Shown here one piece after another: positions 12,247 through 34,699 of a DNA stretch of 64,000 bases. Source of the DNA: Planctomycetota bacterium (lineage in GTDB: Bacteria > Planctomycetota > UBA1135 > UBA2386). Where the stretch lies: positions 6,816,001 through 6,880,000 of the forward strand of contig OZ245838.1 in assembly GCA_965228735.1 (NCBI GenBank). Reading direction: 5' to 3'. Position numbers and translations under genes: made by a program. Under the pieces are notes generated by a model, which saw only the letters and a list, made by a program, of their open reading frames with translations, did no database searches and was not told the DNA's origin. How positions within the stretch are numbered: the first letter of the stretch is position 1; each line of letters starts with the position of its first letter.

Positions 12247-12394
12247 GGAAGGACGGGTCCGCACCGACCCAGGCCCGGCGTACGGGTACCCGGCGTACGG
12301 GTACCTGGTTCATGTCGCCAGCATGCGCGATGGCCAGTGGATGATCCTGGCAGCTTGAACCAGGTACCGTACGGCCGGGTTCGGTACCGCCATC
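12247..12394. repeat. Composite REP-like intergenic palindrome
   Basis: 15-bp tandem CCCGGCGTACGGGTA x2 (12274-12303); near-perfect inverted repeat 12289-12312/12356-12379; CGGGTTCGGTACCGCCATC (12376-12394) identical to 24715-24733. Confidence 0.75.
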
Positions 12395-19559: not shown

Positions 19560-21467
19560 ATGCACGGTAAGAACCTCATCAAGAAGTTCGCCATGGCGGA
19601 CGACGAGCTCTCGCGGCTCACGTCCGAGGCCTTCGGTGGCACCTCCCTGGCAGAACTCGACAACGCGATCGGCGAGACCGTCGCCGAACTCGCGCCCAAC
19701 AAGATCGTCCGCGGCAAGATCATCAAGGTGCAGGAAGACGGCACCGTGATCGTGGACGTCAACTACAAGGCCGAAGGCCACATCTCGATCGAAGAGTTCC
19801 CGGACCCGCTGGCCGTGCAGGCGGGCGAAGAGGTCGAGTGCCTCGTCGAGCAGATCGACGACGCGGAGGGCTTCATTGCGCTGAGCAAGCGCAAGGCCGA
19901 CCGCATCCGCGGCTGGGAGAACATCATCCAGACGCACAAGGAGGGCGACAACGTCAGCGGTCTCGTCCTGCGCAAGATCAAGGGCGGTCTGCTCGTCGAC
20001 ATCGGCGTGCCGGTCTTCCTCCCCGCGTCCCAGGTCAACATCCGCCGCGCCGGCGACATCGGCGACTGGATCGGCAAGGACATCGAGGCGCGCATCATCA
20101 AGATCGACGAGGAGCGGATGAACATCGTCATCTCGCGTCGCAAGCTCATCGAAGAGGAGCGCGAGGCGAAGAAGGCGGAACTCATGGCCGTTCTCGAAGA
20201 GGGTCAGGTCCGCACCGGCGTCGTCAAGAACATCGCCGACTTCGGCGTGTTCGTCGACCTCGGCGGCATCGACGGTCTGCTGCACATCACCGACATGTCG
20301 TGGGGCCGCGTGAACCATCCGTCCGAGATGGTCGGGCTCGACGACCAGGTCGAGGTCAAGGTGCTGAAGATCGACCGCGAGCGCGAGCGCATCGCCCTCG
20401 GCATGAAGCAGAAGTCCGCTTCGCCGTGGGAGAACATCGGCGAGAAGTACCCGGTCGGCCAGCGCGTCGCCGGCGAGGTCGTCAACCTCATGAGCTACGG
20501 CGCGTTCGTCAAGCTCGAGGACGGCGTCGAAGGCCTCGTGCACATCTCGGAGATGTCGTGGACCAAGCGCGTCAACCACCCGAGCGAGGTCGTCAAGATC
20601 GGCGATCGCGTCGAGGTCGTCGTGCTCGAGATCGACACCGAGAAGCAGACCATCTCGCTCGGTATGAAGCAGACGGAGGTCAACCCGTGGGACCTCGTGG
20701 CCGGCCACTACCCGCCGGGCACCGTCATCCGTGGCAAGGTGCGCAACCTGACCAACTACGGCGCGTTCATCGAGCTGCAGGAAGGCATCGACGGTCTGCT
20801 GCACATCACCGACATGTCCTGGACCCGCAAGATCACGAACCCGTCCGAGGTCGTGAAGAAGGGCGAGGAGATCGAGTGTGTGGTGCTGTCGGTCGACCAG
20901 GAGAAGAAGCGCATCGCGCTCGGTCTCAAGCAGCTGCAGGCCGACCCGTGGAGCGGCGACATCCCGGCGCGCTACCACATCGGCGACTCGGTGCCCGGCA
21001 CGGTCACCAAGATCACCAACTTCGGTGTGTTCGTGGAGCTGGAGCAGGGCCTCGAGGGTCTGCTGCACATCAGCGAGCTCGCCGACCACAAGGTCGACAA
21101 CCCCGAAGAGGTGGTCAAGGTCGGTCAGCGCGTCGAGGTTCGCATCATCAAGATCGACACCGACGAGCGGAAGATCGGCCTGACGCTGATCCAGGCGCAC
21201 TTCGACGAGAGCGAAGAGGCGGCGCAGGCCGCGGCGCAGACGCAGCCCGAGCCGGAGCGCGCTCCGGCCCTCGGTTCCCTCGCGAGCCAGCTCAAGGGCA
21301 TCGGCCTGCGAGGCAACGAGAACGAGGCTGGTGCGGCGCCAGCCCAGCCCGAAGAAGCCCAGCCCGAAGCTGCGGCAGAGCCGACGCCGGAGGCCGCTCC
21401 CGAGGCGCCGGCCGAGGCGGGCAACGAAGGCGGCGACGCGTCGTCCGAGGAGCCGAAGGCCGAGTGA
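19560..21467 (+). CDS. rpsA: 30S ribosomal protein S1
   Basis: Repeated S1 domains (GLLHITDMSW, GLVHISEMSW); located downstream of cmk; acidic tail. Confidence 0.97.
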   Translation: MHGKNLIKKFAMADDELSRLTSEAFGGTSLAELDNAIGETVAELAPNKIVRGKIIKVQEDGTVIVDVNYKAEGHISIEEFPDPLAVQAGEEVECLVEQIDDAEGFIALSKRKADRIRGWENIIQTHKEGDNVSGLVLRKIKGGLLVDIGVPVFLPASQVNIRRAGDIGDWIGKDIEARIIKIDEERMNIVISRRKLIEEEREAKKAELMAVLEEGQVRTGVVKNIADFGVFVDLGGIDGLLHITDMSWGRVNHPSEMVGLDDQVEVKVLKIDRERERIALGMKQKSASPWENIGEKYPVGQRVAGEVVNLMSYGAFVKLEDGVEGLVHISEMSWTKRVNHPSEVVKIGDRVEVVVLEIDTEKQTISLGMKQTEVNPWDLVAGHYPPGTVIRGKVRNLTNYGAFIELQEGIDGLLHITDMSWTRKITNPSEVVKKGEEIECVVLSVDQEKKRIALGLKQLQADPWSGDIPARYHIGDSVPGTVTKITNFGVFVELEQGLEGLLHISELADHKVDNPEEVVKVGQRVEVRIIKIDTDERKIGLTLIQAHFDESEEAAQAAAQTQPEPERAPALGSLASQLKGIGLRGNENEAGAAPAQPEEAQPEAAAEPTPEAAPEAPAEAGNEGGDASSEEPKAE

Positions 21468-22624
21468 TCGGTCGCCGGCGTTTCCGAAGCGGCGCGGGGC
21501 TCGCGCTGGCCGCTCTGCTGGCCAGCGCGTGCATCACCGTCGTCGAGGAAGCGCCGCTCATCGGGGATCAGATGGAGCTGCCGCCGTTCGCGGTGGCGCA
21601 GACGATCCCGCTCGGCAAGCCCTCGCAGTCCGAGGGCGAGCGGCAGCTGATCCAGCTCTACGACGGCATCCTGCGCCGCATGCAGGAAGCCGCGGATGAT
21701 CGTCAGGTCGACGTGCTGTTCGACCTGCTGAACAGCTACCAGAAGCCGGGGCTGCCCGACTGGCTGGCGAACCGGCTCGCGGGCTACCGCGCGCTGGCGC
21801 ACGGCCTGCGCTTCCTCGAACACGCGGTTTCGCGCGCCGAGCTGCGGCTCGTGCCGGCGACGGTCGAGGGGCCGGCCGACGGGGCGGGCGCCGCGGTCGA
21901 GACCGCTGCGACGGCGACGCCCGAAGGCATGTCGACCCGGATGCCGCACCTGCCGCCGATCGGCGATCCGCTGCAGCTCGAGTTCATGCTGCCGCCGATG
22001 GTGACGCCGATCCGGCTCGGCGGCCACGACGACAGCGACCCCGTGACGTTCGCGATCGCGATCACCTACGAGGACCTCTACGTCCACGGCGGTTCGAAGA
22101 AGCCGCAGGCCCAAGGCTTCGAGTCGCTGCCACGCGAGTTCGTGCTGCAGGCCGGCGAGCCGCTGCGACTGCCGATCCGGTTCGCGATCCCGACGGACGG
22201 CGCGGTGCGACGCACCGTGCACGTGCGCGTCGACATCCTGCCGGGCTACGTCCGCGTCGAGAACGCTCGGACCGGCGACGGCAGCAGCGGCGAGGTGCGT
22301 GCCCCGATCGAGCGCCGCACGCTGGCGGCGAGTTCGTGGCAGCAGTTCCCGGCCGGTCACCGACCGATCGCCGAGCGCCCACTCGCGACCCTGCGCGAGG
22401 CCATTCGCCTCGGCGACAGCAAGCACTTCCCGCACGTCCTGCTCGGCGCGCTGTTCACGACCGGCCCGGACCGGCAGGAGGCCATCGCGCTGCTCATCGA
22501 CCAGGTCCGCTTCGCCAACGAAGCCCTCGCCATGGTCGCCACCGCCGCCCTGCGCGAGATCACCGAGGCCGACATCCCGATCGGCGACCGCGAGGCCTGG
22601 CTCCGCTGGGCCACCCGCCGCTGA
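21464..22624 (+). CDS. Hypothetical lipoprotein with C-terminal HEAT-like helices
   Basis: GTG overlaps the rpsA TGA; LALAALLASAC lipobox; this is the 3' part of track ORF 19838..22624. Confidence 0.75.
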   Translation: MIGRRRFRSGAGLALAALLASACITVVEEAPLIGDQMELPPFAVAQTIPLGKPSQSEGERQLIQLYDGILRRMQEAADDRQVDVLFDLLNSYQKPGLPDWLANRLAGYRALAHGLRFLEHAVSRAELRLVPATVEGPADGAGAAVETAATATPEGMSTRMPHLPPIGDPLQLEFMLPPMVTPIRLGGHDDSDPVTFAIAITYEDLYVHGGSKKPQAQGFESLPREFVLQAGEPLRLPIRFAIPTDGAVRRTVHVRVDILPGYVRVENARTGDGSSGEVRAPIERRTLAASSWQQFPAGHRPIAERPLATLREAIRLGDSKHFPHVLLGALFTTGPDRQEAIALLIDQVRFANEALAMVATAALREITEADIPIGDREAWLRWATRR

Positions 22625-22640
22625 TGGCGGTACCGAACCC
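22623..22640. repeat. 5' part of the left arm of a 33-bp inverted repeat (carries intron IBS2/IBS1)
   Basis: GATGGCGGTACCGAACCC joined to 24633-24647 is the exact reverse complement of 24701-24733. Confidence 0.85.
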
Positions 22641-24632
22641 TTGCGCCAGGCGAAGCCTGGACGGGAGAAATCATGACCTGACAGGAATGAGAACCCCGTA
22701 TTGGAGTCCCGCGGGTGACGAAACCCGCCCGGCGAAGGCTAGCCACCAGCCGGAAGCGAGTCTTGCGTGGCGACCGGGTAACCGCCGCTGCGAAGCGTAG
22801 ACAGCGAGGATGTGGGCGGCGCGACTGAGCCCCGAAAGTACCGACAGCGAGAGAGCCGACGTGGTGGGTTCATCGGAAGGCAACATGGAAGGGCCGCAAC
22901 CGGCTTGGCCCGGAAGTCTCTCCGGGGTCCTGAGAACGACCGCACGCATCCATCGGACTCCCCAGGAACCTGGGATCCCCTCGATTGGTCCGATCGTCAA
23001 CTCCGGCTGGGGCCCGGAAACCAACTCTCCAGGGCCGCGACGTCGTGTCCGCGTCGGTGCCGTCAAGGAATCCGGACACACGGCCGGTACCGCCGAGCGA
23101 AGGAAACGAAGCGACGCGGGACGCCAACGAGGGAGTCGGAGTGCGTCATAGTACCAAAGAGTCCGGGGAACCCGCCCCACGGGGACCCGGCGGAGGGAAG
23201 GGCGTCACCGGCGACAAGGAACCGCTGGACGGACCGACCACGGAGACGACGGGCTCCGAGCAGGTCTCCACGAAACTCCGGCGGGTAGCGGAGCTGGCGA
23301 GGCAGCGACCAGACCTGGTCCTGACCACACTGGCACACCACATGGACATCGCGCTTCTGCGGGAGGCGTATCGCCGCACGCAGAAGTCCAAAGCTCCTGG
23401 TGTCGACGGCGTCACGGCTCGCGACTACGAGCAGGATCTCGAGGGCAACCTCGCGGACCTGCACGAACGCGCGAAGTCAGGGCGCTATCGCGCACCACCG
23501 GTCCGGCGCGTGCACATCCCGAAAGGGAAGGGTGGCACGCGTCCAATCGGAGTGCCGACGCTGGAGGACAAGGTCTTGCAGCGGGCGGTGACGCAAGTGA
23601 TGGAGGCGGTATATGAGCAGGACTTCTTGGACTGCTCGCACGGCTTCCGTCCCGGTCGCTCGCCGCACACGGCACTGGAATCGCTTTGGAAGCATGCGAT
23701 GTCGATGGGTGGCGGCTGGCTGTTGGAAGTCGACATCCAAGGTTTCTTCGACAACCTGGAGCCGACCCATCTGCGAGCGATCCTCGACCAGCGGGTGCGC
23801 GACGGAGTGTTCCGTCGACTGATCGACAAGTGGCTGAAGGCGGGGGTGCAGGAGGACGGTGCGCTGCATCGCTCTCGCAAAGGCACCCCACAAGGAGGCG
23901 TGATTTCGCCGCTGCTGGCGAACATCTATTTGCACGCAGTGCTGGACCGTTGGTTTGTCGAGGAAGTCAAGCCGAGGCTTGCCGGTCGCGCGGAGTTGGT
24001 CCGCTATGCGGACGACTTCGTGATCCTGTTTGCCGTCGAAGCCGATGCACGTGCGATGTCGTCGATCCTGGCCCAAAGGCTCGGGCGCTTCGGCCTCACA
24101 CTGCATCCGGACAAGACCCGGTTAGTCCGCTTCCAACCGCCCGAAGACGGCGCGGCGGGGAGCGGCACTTTCGACTTCCTGGGCTTCACCCATCACTGGT
24201 CACGCTCCCGGCGCGGCCGATGGACCGTGCAGCGGCGCACCACACGACACGTCGTGACCCGTACCCTGACTGGGCTACGGGATTGGTGCCGTCGCAATCG
24301 GCACGACAAGGTCCGCGTCCAGTACTCCACCCTGTGCTCGAAGCTACGGGGGCACTACCTCTACTTCGGCGTGACCGGCAACTCTGCTGCGTTACGTCGC
24401 GTATGGTACGAGGCCCGTCGCATCTGGCATCGGTGGCTGAGCCGGCGCTCGCGGGCGGCCTACATGTCGTGGGCCCGCTTCGAGCAACTGCTGCGTGCAT
24501 ACCCGCTTCCTCCGCCCCGGCTGACCCGGTCGGTCTACGCAGCGAGCCCTTGTCGCTGACGAGCCGGATGCGTTAGCCGCGCACGTCCGGATCTGTGGGA
24601 GCCCTGGGGGGAGACCCCCAGGGCCACCCGGC
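22641..24632 (+). mobile_element. Full-length group II intron (IIB-like, IEP lacking endonuclease domain)
   Basis: 5' TTGCG; EBS2 GTACCG 22838-22843; EBS1 GGGTTC 22866-22871; RT ORF; DV 24561-24593 with AGC triad; DVI with bulged A 24626. Boundaries are fixed by restoration of the flanking inverted repeat. Confidence 0.92.
23225..24559 (+). CDS. ltrA: Group II intron reverse transcriptase/maturase (start uncertain; first ATG at 23342)
   Basis: KAPGVDG, RRVHIPK, RPIGVPTLEDK, GFRPGRS, GTPQGGVISPLLANIYL, RYADD, FDFLGF, X domain; no HNH. Confidence 0.93.
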   Translation: MDGPTTETTGSEQVSTKLRRVAELARQRPDLVLTTLAHHMDIALLREAYRRTQKSKAPGVDGVTARDYEQDLEGNLADLHERAKSGRYRAPPVRRVHIPKGKGGTRPIGVPTLEDKVLQRAVTQVMEAVYEQDFLDCSHGFRPGRSPHTALESLWKHAMSMGGGWLLEVDIQGFFDNLEPTHLRAILDQRVRDGVFRRLIDKWLKAGVQEDGALHRSRKGTPQGGVISPLLANIYLHAVLDRWFVEEVKPRLAGRAELVRYADDFVILFAVEADARAMSSILAQRLGRFGLTLHPDKTRLVRFQPPEDGAAGSGTFDFLGFTHHWSRSRRGRWTVQRRTTRHVVTRTLTGLRDWCRRNRHDKVRVQYSTLCSKLRGHYLYFGVTGNSAALRRVWYEARRIWHRWLSRRSRAAYMSWARFEQLLRAYPLPPPRLTRSVYAASPCR

Positions 24633-24733
24633 GTTTCGAATCCGCCATCGACCAGGTTCGCCAACGCGGTTCGGCAGCGCCACCTGCGCTCGTCGCTCCG
24701 TGGCGGATTCGAAACGGGTTCGGTACCGCCATC
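24633..24733. repeat. Remainder of REP/MITE-like inverted repeat element (rest of left arm, 53-nt spacer, right arm 24701-24733)
   Basis: GTTTCGAATCCGCCA ... TGGCGGATTCGAAACGGGTTCGGTACCGCCATC. Confidence 0.85.
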
Positions 24734-24773
24734 CGGGATGGCGTGTGGGCATTCTGACGGTAGCGTCACCCGC

Positions 24774-25979
24774 GTGACCGTTCCCGTTGAAGAGCAGCTC
24801 CGGATCCTCGAGCGCGGTGTCGTCGATCTCGTCGATCGCGAGGATCTGAAGAAGCGGCTCGAGCAGAGTCAGGCCGAGGGGCGCCCGTTGCGCGTCAAGT
24901 TCGGCATCGATCCGAGTTCGCCCGACATCCACCTCGGCCACACGGTGCCGTTGCGCAAGCTGCGCGACTTCCAGCGGCTCGGCCACCGCGTCATCGTGCT
25001 CTGGGGCACGGCGACCGCGATGGTGGGTGACCCGACGGGGAAGAACAAGACGCGGCCGCCGCTGTCGCGCGACGACGTCGAGGCCAACAAGCAGACCTAT
25101 CGCGATCAGATCGGCGCCGTGCTCGACGTCGACGACATCGAAGAACGCGAGAACGGCGCCTGGTTCCACGAGCAGTCGTTCATGGACTGCATCACGCTCG
25201 CGAGTCGCTACACCGTCGCGCGCATGCTCGAGCGCGACGACTTCAGCAAGCGCTACAAGGACGGGCGGCCGATCGCGATCCACGAGTTCCTCTACCCGCT
25301 GCTGCAGGGTTGGGACTCGGTCGAACTGGAATGCGACGTCGAGATCGGCGGCAGTGATCAGCTGTTCAATCTGCTCGTCGGTCGCGACCTCCAGGGCCAG
25401 AGCGGTCAGACGCCGCAGATCTGCCTCACGATGCCGATCATCGAAGGACTCGACGGCACGCAGAAGATGTCGAAGTCGCTCGGCAACTACATCGGCATCA
25501 ACGAGAGCAGCTCGGAGCAGTTCGGCAAGGTGATGAAGGTGCCGAACGACCTGCTCGAGAAGTACTTCACCCTGCTCACCGACGTCGAGCCGGACCGCAT
25601 CGCGCAGTTGCTCGACAACCCGCTCGAGGCCAAGTTCGCGCTCGCCGACGCGATCGTCGCGGACTACCACGGCCCGGATGCGGCCAGGGCGGCGCGCGCC
25701 GAGTACGACCGCGTGCACCAGCAGGGCGGCCTGCCCGATGACCTGCCCGAGTTCGCGATCCCGAGCGACCAGCTCAAGGATGGCGCGGTCTGGCTGCCGG
25801 CCGCGATGGCGTTCGCCAGGCTCTGCGCGAGCAACAGCGAAGGCCGCCGGCTCGTGCAGGGCGGCGGCGTGCGCGTCGATGGCGAGGTCGTGAAGGACGC
25901 CAAGCACGGCCTGCCGCCCGGCGACTACGTGCTGCAGGTCGGCAAGCGCAAGTTCGCGAAGGTCGTGATCGCCGGCTGA
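24774..25979 (+). CDS. tyrS: Tyrosine--tRNA ligase
   Basis: KFGIDPSSPDIHLGH, GDPTGK, YPLLQGWD, GGSDQ, KMSKS, C-terminal S4 domain (VGKRKF). Confidence 0.97.
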   Translation: MTVPVEEQLRILERGVVDLVDREDLKKRLEQSQAEGRPLRVKFGIDPSSPDIHLGHTVPLRKLRDFQRLGHRVIVLWGTATAMVGDPTGKNKTRPPLSRDDVEANKQTYRDQIGAVLDVDDIEERENGAWFHEQSFMDCITLASRYTVARMLERDDFSKRYKDGRPIAIHEFLYPLLQGWDSVELECDVEIGGSDQLFNLLVGRDLQGQSGQTPQICLTMPIIEGLDGTQKMSKSLGNYIGINESSSEQFGKVMKVPNDLLEKYFTLLTDVEPDRIAQLLDNPLEAKFALADAIVADYHGPDAARAARAEYDRVHQQGGLPDDLPEFAIPSDQLKDGAVWLPAAMAFARLCASNSEGRRLVQGGGVRVDGEVVKDAKHGLPPGDYVLQVGKRKFAKVVIAG

Positions 25980-33824: not shown

Positions 33825-33951
33825 GCATGCGGTCTGAGAACGTCGTCGGAAAGCCGTGTGCGGGAAATCCGCACGCACGGTTTGAACGGGGGTCTCAGGT
33901 GGTGCAGGGCTCGCTTGCTTGTGTTTCCTTCATCACCTGAGATCTACCTAT
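33825..33951 (+). mobile_element. Group II intron 3' remnant (domains V and VI only)
   Basis: AAGCCGTGTGCGGGAAATCCGCACGCACGGTTT (DV, AGC 33852-33854); DVI stem 33888-33948 with bulged A 33946; ends AT. Confidence 0.85.
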
Positions 33952-34699
33952 GCACCTCCCCGACGCGGCGCCGTTCACGATCTGGCCCTCACGCCTCGCG
34001 GCGCAGGCGCCAGGGGACGCGAGCGCGCCGCATGCACACCACGCGATGCACCTCCTGCTCGCTAGGAGCGGAGACCTGCGGGTTCGCGAAGGGGGCGAAG
34101 TGCACTGCGCGCCCGGGGTGGTCACTGCTGCGGACGTCGAGCATGCGGTAGAGGCAGCCGGACGGGAAGTGGTGCTCGCATTCTGGGATCCCGAGTCGGA
34201 CGACGGCGCGAGCTTGCGCGCCACGTTCGAGGGCGGCGTGCGGCTGATCTCGGAGGCCGAACGACGCGCGTTGCTCGTCGACCTCCCCGAGGCCCCGGGG
34301 CGTGACGACCTCGACGCGTTCATGGCGCGCGCACGGGACACCCTCGCCGGGCCGACGTCGCGACCGCGCATGCACCCCGACGTGCGCGTGTTGCTGGAGT
34401 CACTGCGTGACGGCGCGGAGATCGACACCTCGCTCGAAGCGCTCGCCGCGCGCGTGAGCCTCTCGCCCTCGCGCCTGATGCACGTCTTCACCGAGTCGGT
34501 TGGCATCCCGCTGCGGCCCTATCTCCTGTGGCTGAAGCTGCAGCGCGCCGCGACGTCGATCGTGAACGGGGTGGGGCTCACGCAGGCGGCGATGGGGGCG
34601 GACTTCGCGGATGCGGCCCACATGAGCCGAACGTTCAAACGCATGTTCGGGATGACGCCCTCCGCGCTCCAACGGCGGAGCCGCCGCGCGTCGAGCTGA
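33950..34699 (+). CDS. AraC family transcriptional regulator
   Basis: Cupin-like HAHHAMHL; double HTH SLSPSRLMHVF...FADAAHMSRTFKRMFGMTPS. Confidence 0.92.
   Translation: MHLPDAAPFTIWPSRLAAQAPGDASAPHAHHAMHLLLARSGDLRVREGGEVHCAPGVVTAADVEHAVEAAGREVVLAFWDPESDDGASLRATFEGGVRLISEAERRALLVDLPEAPGRDDLDAFMARARDTLAGPTSRPRMHPDVRVLLESLRDGAEIDTSLEALAARVSLSPSRLMHVFTESVGIPLRPYLLWLKLQRAATSIVNGVGLTQAAMGADFADAAHMSRTFKRMFGMTPSALQRRSRRASS

Follow-up and report, generated by a model that had tools for sequence, protein, structure and literature searches.

Why should a group II intron interrupt one arm of a palindromic repeat and leave the matching arm, on the far side of a 55-nt spacer, empty? The question is raised by positions 22641 to 24632 of a 64,000-nt stretch of Planctomycetota DNA (contig OZ245838.1, positions 6,816,001 to 6,880,000; hereafter the window), which belongs to a genome assembled as a single contig of 7.19 Mb with 69% G+C (G000). 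We consider it very probable that this intron spreads by retrohoming into the arms of REPIN-like elements at the replication fork. New here are strand-specific changes at positions -12 and -11 of the intron-binding site 2 (IBS2) of these arms.

Deletion of 22641-24632 in silico creates a 33-nt arm that is the exact reverse complement of 24701-24733, as claimed in a preliminary description of the locus, the coordinates of which all agree with the sequence. The two pairings between exon-binding sites (EBS) and IBS that it proposed are likewise present, 22866-22871 (EBS1) being complementary to 22635-22640 (IBS1) and 22838-22843 (EBS2) to 22628-22633 (IBS2). To these we add a third, EBS3, in which C22930 pairs with G24633. 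Formally, the boundary could shift one base leftward owing to a shared C; the alignment of homologs together with the register of EBS1 favour 22640/22641, the boundary originally given. The parts of the interrupted repetitive extragenic palindromic (REP) element and of its recognition are as follows.

22624 to 22640, plus strand: outer part of the left REP arm, the 5' exon
22628 to 22633, plus strand: IBS2, in which 22629 and 22630 are positions -12 and -11, altered in many other arms of the same orientation
22635 to 22640, plus strand: IBS1
22641 to 24632, plus strand: group II intron of 1,992 nt with TTGCG start and GC end, one of 10 copies
22838 to 22843, plus strand: EBS2
22866 to 22871, plus strand: EBS1
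22930, plus strand: EBS3 (C), pairing with G24633
24633 to 24646, plus strand: inner part of the left arm, the 3' exon, with G24633 as IBS3
24647 to 24701, no strand: REPIN spacer of 55 nt, with the same sequence as the spacer that follows the intron copy at G000:C1:1606004 (minus strand)
24702 to 24732, minus strand: right REP arm, empty, fully pairing, in the rarely used orientation

BLAST detects ten intron copies in the genome, 99.95-100% identical, of which eight are contiguous (six identical, two with one change) and two are interrupted by insertion sequences (IS). All ten lie at one bond of a 31-nt palindromic arm, in the loop of the arm's hairpin, and their outer flanks differ. Comparison of the 5' exons, none of which is in unrelated sequence, bears out the proposal that the intron is aimed through EBS/IBS pairing at a multicopy intergenic palindrome, in agreement with covariation among homologs and an intron-free allele, both described below. 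The IBS2-IBS1 13-mer is indeed multicopy, with 79 occurrences in the 7.19-Mb genome. Two minus-strand occurrences in the window had been pointed out, at 24716-24728 and 12377-12389; both hold the 13-mer, but the latter is a half arm joined to a sister repeat and not a full arm. The interrupted copies (G000:C1:339710-344444 and 6550593-6553893) contain multicopy IS of ~1.3 kb (twice) and 1.4 kb, which appear IS3-like and IS256-like from a reading of their proteins.

For a census of the target, introns were removed in silico and up to 7 mismatches to the 31-nt arm were allowed, yielding 133 arms, with none in the reversed genome up to 8 mismatches. Most of these arms (118) form 59 inverted doublets of this target family (A), non-coding elements of 117 nt with fixed 86-nt spacing; the spacer measures 55 nt in 53 of the 59, and mean spacer identity is 46%. 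By a crude gene caller, several calls of which overlapped an element, most doublets lie within ~30 nt of a called gene end. REPINs have this layout too, their doublets being inverted, set at a constant distance and separated by a spacer that varies in sequence (PMC3116915). The target had been named a REP-like inverted repeat; a palindromic repeat it is, and the fitter name is a REPIN-like doublet with a gene resembling those of REP-associated tyrosine transposases (RAYT). Despite their divergence, the family-A spacers of 55 nt keep a weak inverted motif, CGCAA near 14-18 with its complement near 38-42.

The RAYT-like gene is the single HUH transposase gene found and lies outside the window, at G000:C1:6715991-6717019. 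It lies between arms of a second repeat family, B, with half an arm of the target family A just downstream. Its protein, which bears an extra C-terminal helix-turn-helix, scores 26.8 bits with PF01797 (cut-off 23) and 51.4 bits with NF047646, under the cut-off of 80; the genome search with PF01797 gave no RAYT, and the NF047646 search with a direct protein scan did. Family B is related to the target family, comprises 63 doublets genome-wide without fixed spacing and is never occupied by the intron. In several hybrids, a B doublet is joined to an A arm or to half of one, for example at window 12356-12392.

The exact target repeat was not found in 40 sampled relatives, and relaxed BLAST in five of them gave scattered weak matches only. 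One relative, G013, encodes a homolog of the RAYT-like protein with 50% identity, flanked by a related, intermediate repeat that is present 92 times. Nine metagenome contigs were rejected as an independent control, their long matches being 99.7-100% identical to G000; the odd end of metagenome contig L113 maps back onto its own contig and was treated as an assembly fold-back.

The choice of this bond can be attributed in part to base pairing. From 48 aligned homologous introns, 5 without anchor were skipped and duplicates or short flanks were dropped, leaving 39 distinct sets, which include kin and hence are not independent. Watson-Crick pairing in these sets reaches 0.91, 0.63 and 0.93 for EBS1, EBS2 and EBS3; 2,000 shuffles average 0.29, 0.27 and 0.30 and never exceed 0.44, 0.39 and 0.57. 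Within G000, 84 of the 133 arms pair fully; all 10 occupied arms are among them, and none of the remaining 49 is occupied (p = 0.013). Two occupied arms deviate from the 13-mer, by an unpaired base at -7 or by a G-T wobble. Among insertions of the intron RmInt1, all five EBS2/IBS2 pairs were present in 86% (PMC4075523).

Pairing is joined by a strand rule, which the preliminary description lacked and which accounts for the empty partner arm at 24716-24728. GC skew and dnaA place origin and terminus at about 4.56 and 1.24 Mb, respectively, and nine of the ten introns read in the leading-strand direction, so that the lagging-strand template would have been the strand that received their RNA. Of the fully pairing arms, 9 of 26 in that orientation are filled vs 1 of 58 in the other (p = 7e-5), and transcription direction does not account for this occupancy. 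The same template bias is described for RmInt1 (PMC8914252). Below, arms in the favoured orientation are called exposed and those in the other sheltered.

Exposed arms are marked by changes that their partners lack. A change at -12 or -11 of IBS2 is present in 37 of 67 arms in the exposed orientation vs 5 of 66 others. Among the 59 doublets, these positions are changed in the exposed arm only in 27, in the sheltered arm only in 0, in both in 4 and in neither in 28 (p = 1.5e-8). When the one-sided cases are listed along the chromosome without assuming either origin or terminus, the changes lie on the plus strand as far as 0.72 Mb, on the minus strand between 2.16 and 4.21 Mb and on the plus strand again from 4.69 Mb onward, for 27 of 27, and the flip falls at origin and terminus. 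All six possible substitutions at the two positions are present, and no exposed arm has both positions changed (17 + 20 + 0). The remaining IBS positions lean the same way (13 changes in exposed vs 4 in sheltered arms), whereas positions outside the IBS do not (26 vs 25). The bias at -12/-11 persists for convergent genes and for genes transcribed against replication, and is not explained by transcription. Altogether, the exposed arm is broken in 35 of the 59 doublets, none of these arms being occupied, and intact in 24, of which 9 are filled there. The idea that the repeat offers a harmless target fares poorly here, as arms in the intron-occupied orientation are depleted of intact pairing sites, the trace that a cost would leave; from this depletion we infer that insertion is costly to the host or to the REPIN.

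Evidence for mobility comes from eight public runs compared with the locus, in which depth serves as a rough guide only. No joint skipping the intron was found in seven of them, and in four of the eight the intron contig has 4-12 times the flank depth. In run X8, a 6,998-nt contig covers 21800-25600 and contains no intron; 22640 is followed in it by GTTTCGAA, and the intron has 4-5 times the depth of this contig. Because run X8 holds this intron-free contig at the locus, filled and empty alleles coexist among strains. Run X16 contains an intron variant over window 22687-24610 with 12 differences in ~1,740 nt, with REP arms and without the flanks of the locus; therefore, another strain or species has both intron and arms. 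Near-identical copies and the empty allele suggest, indirectly, a mobile group II intron capable of splicing and retrohoming.

We hypothesize that the repeat arms have been selected for changes that the intron cannot read, that is, for escape of the target site, and give this reading a rough probability of 0.6. The three exon-binding sites of this endonuclease-less, class E/F-like intron match one bond in a REPIN-like arm. By analogy with RmInt1, the intron would be spliced from a read-through transcript, its RNA would reverse-splice into an arm on the single-stranded lagging-strand template, and the nascent lagging strand would act as primer. The pattern of changes suggests that insertions, or attempts at them, would cost the host or the REPIN enough to favour single changes at -12 or -11. 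Such resistance changes would collect in IBS2 on the exposed strand, where the RAYT likely tolerates them: these two positions vary between three related repeat families and the next three bases do not, which suggests positions at which the transposase accepts substitutions.

Several observations weigh against target-site escape or against the homing on which it depends. The changes at -12/-11 weaken the arm hairpin by ~3 kcal/mol, which confounds effects of sequence and of structure. The asymmetry is known from one genome; two others considered for a repeat of the comparison were unsuitable, G192 with only 17 motif copies and G189, an assembly of 120 contigs in which 29 of 30 examined loci lacked an inverted partner of the motif within 500 nt. 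Outside the arms, 197 sites pair fully (wobble allowed), 109 of them in the favoured orientation, and none is occupied. EBS pairing is therefore insufficient, and further specificity must come from bases read by protein, from the hairpin or from selection against insertions in genes. The EBS2-IBS2 pairing is dispensable for in vitro self-splicing of IIE/IIF introns, and its role in homing is only proposed (PMC3753933). One copy stands in the disfavoured orientation. Relative to a clean join, the X8 allele has 5 extra nt and differs at 4 other points; footprint of loss, duplication and variant arm are candidates for the added length (window 22640/24636). Finally, no decayed intron copies or remnants beyond the ten were found in G000, which thus shows no direct trace of a long conflict.

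The main alternative, which we hold to be unlikely, leaves the homing as described and makes the one-sided changes a property of the repeat itself. The transposase would insert family-A doublets in a fixed orientation to replication, with the outer bases of the leading end derived from, or loosely matched to, the target DNA, and the intron would just skip unpaired arms. Elements of the IS200/IS605 type prefer the lagging strand. The fixed spacing of family A, which family B does not have, also fits, as the two families may move differently, and so does the concentration of changes at two adjacent outer positions. REPIN excision is asymmetric in P. fluorescens SBW25 (PMC3116915), a further point that counts against escape. 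However, the outermost arm positions 0 and 1 vary equally in both arms, and the lean extends to the other IBS positions but not to positions outside them. Family B, beside the same RAYT-like gene, serves as a control: none of the positions of its 63 doublets is biased, none of the doublets is occupied, and the base matching -11 is retained in 63 of 63 exposed arms. A scan of family B at fixed positions, with one mismatch allowed, gave 25 exposed sites short of one IBS2 pair only, all empty. The relative G013 varies at neither of the two corresponding positions among its 92 arms (a count that tolerates 3 mismatches), and the 126 of 235 RNA candidates scored there include no such intron.

We regard it as improbable that the pattern reflects survivorship, with an earlier wave of introns filling most susceptible doublets, which were then deleted whole, so that the survivors were those already changed and no escape allele was favoured. 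Such a history requires mutation and loss only, and selection against intron-loaded genomes has been argued for Enterobacteriales (PMC3522654). At steady state, a simple model predicts a ratio of changed to unchanged exposed arms near the background in partner arms (4 of 31, 0.13), whereas 31:28, or 1.1, is observed. A single purge would need the loss of about nine in ten doublets, and no remnants were detected besides the ten copies.

That the RAYT or recombination copied whole repeat-plus-intron units, the EBS match being a relic of one founding insertion, is very improbable: the window copy and the copy at G000:C1:1606004 do share an identical 55-nt spacer (region 1603912-1604012 for the latter), the sole identical pair among 53, and a contig over intron end and spacer has about twice the flank depth in run X2, but the other eight spacers differ, the two spacer-sharing copies are distinguished by intron base 1082 and by the final base of the exon, and the doublet without intron at the window locus in run X8 largely refutes such copying. 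The depth in run X2 suggests that the shared spacer is not an assembly error; gene conversion through intron and far arm of two intron-bearing loci is its likely, and simpler, source.

Target-site escape may form part of a larger picture, to which we give even odds: a three-level arms race on one chromosome, in which an RNA-guided retroelement preys on REPINs. Each doublet would contribute an exposed arm and its sheltered twin, and dozens of internally controlled, independent resistance mutations would have arisen where EBS2 reads but the RAYT tolerates change. Elsewhere, members of the same class E/F clade would have turned their EBS towards other repeats of their hosts.

Other genomes supply material on this last element. 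In G189, of the same phylum, a sister intron (protein 62% identical) is present ten times, and all of these copies follow a motif that occurs 194 times when one mismatch is allowed (control 2); G192 has three intron copies in a repeat found 17 times. Other homologs are located in genes or single-copy hairpins; repeat targeting in this clade is common, not universal. The rebuilt empty sites of homologs fold at z < -2 in 12 of 34 cases (including a few duplicate loci) vs none of 31 controls taken upstream; the corresponding 120-nt join in the window does not reach z < -2. A palindrome beside the Pirellulaceae homologs was rejected as a REP target, being single-copy (1, 1, 0, 0 and 1 matches in 5 genomes). 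Two further homologs of the class E/F-like clade, L003 and L009, appear on reading to lie in sequences resembling integron attC sites, and the 3' end of homolog L146 (G424:C9) directly abuts the 5' end of another group II intron.

The assignment of the intron is based on the following parts of its RNA and of its intron-encoded protein (IEP), a reverse transcriptase (RT)/maturase.

22741 to 22744, plus strand: alpha, in covarying pairing with 22902-22905
22902 to 22905, plus strand: alpha-prime, in the terminal loop of a stem-loop (class E/F feature)
23225 to 24559, plus strand: IEP, with YADD present
24561 to 24594, plus strand: domain V with AGC triad and 5-nt loop, from sequence and fold
24597 to 24629, plus strand: domain VI, with predicted branch A 24626 as seventh base from the end, from sequence and fold

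The intron matches Rfam RF02005 (group-II-D1D4-6, the domain I-IV fold) with 123.5 bits vs a gathering threshold of 49; at its domain V, Rfam Intron_gpII stays below its cut-off, and the catalytic triad of domain V and the bulged A of domain VI are seen in sequence and fold and are conserved among homologs. The IEP probably starts at an in-frame CTG at 23225 behind AAGGA, giving ~444 aa (23249-24556, 436 aa, served as query in protein searches). It scores 343.9 bits with TIGR04416 (cut-off 300), as an RT/maturase encoded in domain IV, and the Pfam scan gave RVT_1 only, with no endonuclease domain. Outside the open reading frame (ORF) the RNA measures 657-681 nt, depending on the start codon. 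This length, alpha-prime at the end of a stem-loop in DId3 and the 5-nt loop of domain V agree with the published IIE/IIF description (alpha-prime on a stem-loop, 5-nt domain V loop, 450-700 nt; PMC3753933). Judged by RNA features, with E and F taken together, the intron would thus be of class E/F type; class C is excluded by the covarying EBS2, the 6-nt EBS1 and the site within the arm's loop. The ends UUGCG...GC depart from GUGYG...AY. Because they recur in many homologs and UUGCG...GU is reported for UHB.I2 (PMC7923331), they represent a variant of the clade.

Around the intron and elsewhere in the window, the following features are of note.

21464 to 22624, plus strand: upstream gene, 386 aa, with a stop codon (22622-22624) that overlaps the start of the repeat; reads into the intron
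24738 to 25979, plus strand: tyrS, the downstream neighbour
12377 to 12392, minus strand: empty half arm of family A, the target, joined to a sister-family arm
12356 to 12374, minus strand: arm of the sister repeat family B

The upstream gene matched no Pfam or NCBIfam family, and no sigma-70-type promoter was found in 22400-24900. A hairpin restored by splicing upstream of tyrS had been proposed; the link to tyrS appears incidental, the remaining nine copies being located elsewhere. At the RNA level such restoration is possible, because a gene reads into eight of the ten intron copies by a crude ORF test, although the same test gives a similar rate for empty arms.

Elements at some distance were also seen. 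A different group II intron is represented at window 33849-33953 by its domain V/VI (41.7 bits with Rfam Intron_gpII). No RT was found next to this element, which resembles the end of another intron at G000:C1 ~7,171,700-7,173,750, whose protein is 43% identical to the window IEP. The segment 29727-32225 contains a tRNA gene and, after it, genes for a transposase with an integrase core (rve_3) and for a toxin of the AbiEii family; an integrated island probably has its edge here. A 619-residue open frame at G000:C1:4719942-4721800 encodes a YMDD-type RT that has no relation to introns (part of it is 27% identical to the IEP) and is possibly a defence RT.

Homing sites, terminators or attC sites are the targets described for group II introns (PMC4424553); the present case adds another natural type, a REPIN arm recognized through full EBS pairing. 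The paired arms form a built-in control that genome data rarely offer; the doublets reveal the replication-strand rule of an endonuclease-less intron and supply natural evidence that EBS2-IBS2 matters to IIE/IIF homing. If target-site escape is true, insertion even into "safe" repeats is costly, which bears on the neutrality of bacterial group II introns and on the benefit of REPINs to their host. EBS-directed homing into REPINs is not reported in the excerpts covered (which include PMC1525189, PMC8919778, PMC4424553, PMC7923331 and bioRxiv 10.64898/2026.09.22.753630, and describe REP-targeting IS, IIC hairpins and a P. putida group II intron with only 2 of 9 REP associations, PMC1525189), a coverage that leaves subscription journals largely outside and omits supplements, of which those of PMC1525189 and PMC8919778 could list REP-associated introns. 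Within the same limits, strand-specific target-site resistance is not reported either, PMC3522654 included.

Among known systems, RmInt1 of Sinorhizobium meliloti with its target ISRm2011-2 shares the absence of an endonuclease domain, recognition through EBS1, EBS2 and EBS3, a multicopy mobile target and a strong, not absolute, lagging-strand template bias (PMC8914252, PMC4075523). Its target is an IS that codes for a transposase, whereas here it is a non-coding REPIN-like doublet in which each element has one exposed and one sheltered arm, and the RNA has class E/F features; one-sided target changes are not mentioned for RmInt1 in the excerpts of these two papers. The IIE/IIF introns Cl.be.I2, Pe.th.I2 and Ge.ur.I1-1 (PMC3753933) resemble the present one in alpha-prime at the tip of a stem-loop, the 5-nt loop of domain V, ~660-680 nt of RNA outside the ORF and a covarying EBS2-IBS2. 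They differ from the UUGCG...GC ends seen here, and for the part of EBS2-IBS2 in homing, a proposal in that paper, the present genome gives natural evidence.

The IIC introns that follow terminators or enter attC sites (PMC4424553) likewise use many intergenic hairpins without an endonuclease. In contrast to the covarying 6+6+1 pairing and the cut inside the arm loop found here, they have no EBS2 and a short EBS1 and insert after a stem-loop. ISPsy8, ISPa11, ISPpu9, ISPpu10, ISRm19 and ISRm22 are mobile elements specific to REP (PMC1525189), but move by DNA transposases, whereas recognition here is by intron RNA. With REPIN-RAYT systems (PMC3116915, bioRxiv 10.1101/2021.07.10.451892, 10.1101/119735), the target shares inverted doublets at fixed distance, a variable spacer, intergenic position and, as a candidate cognate, a single-copy HUH transposase gene. 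It departs from them in a RAYT-like protein with a C-terminal helix-turn-helix and a score below the NF047646 cut-off, and in arms that are asymmetric at the very site where the intron pairs.

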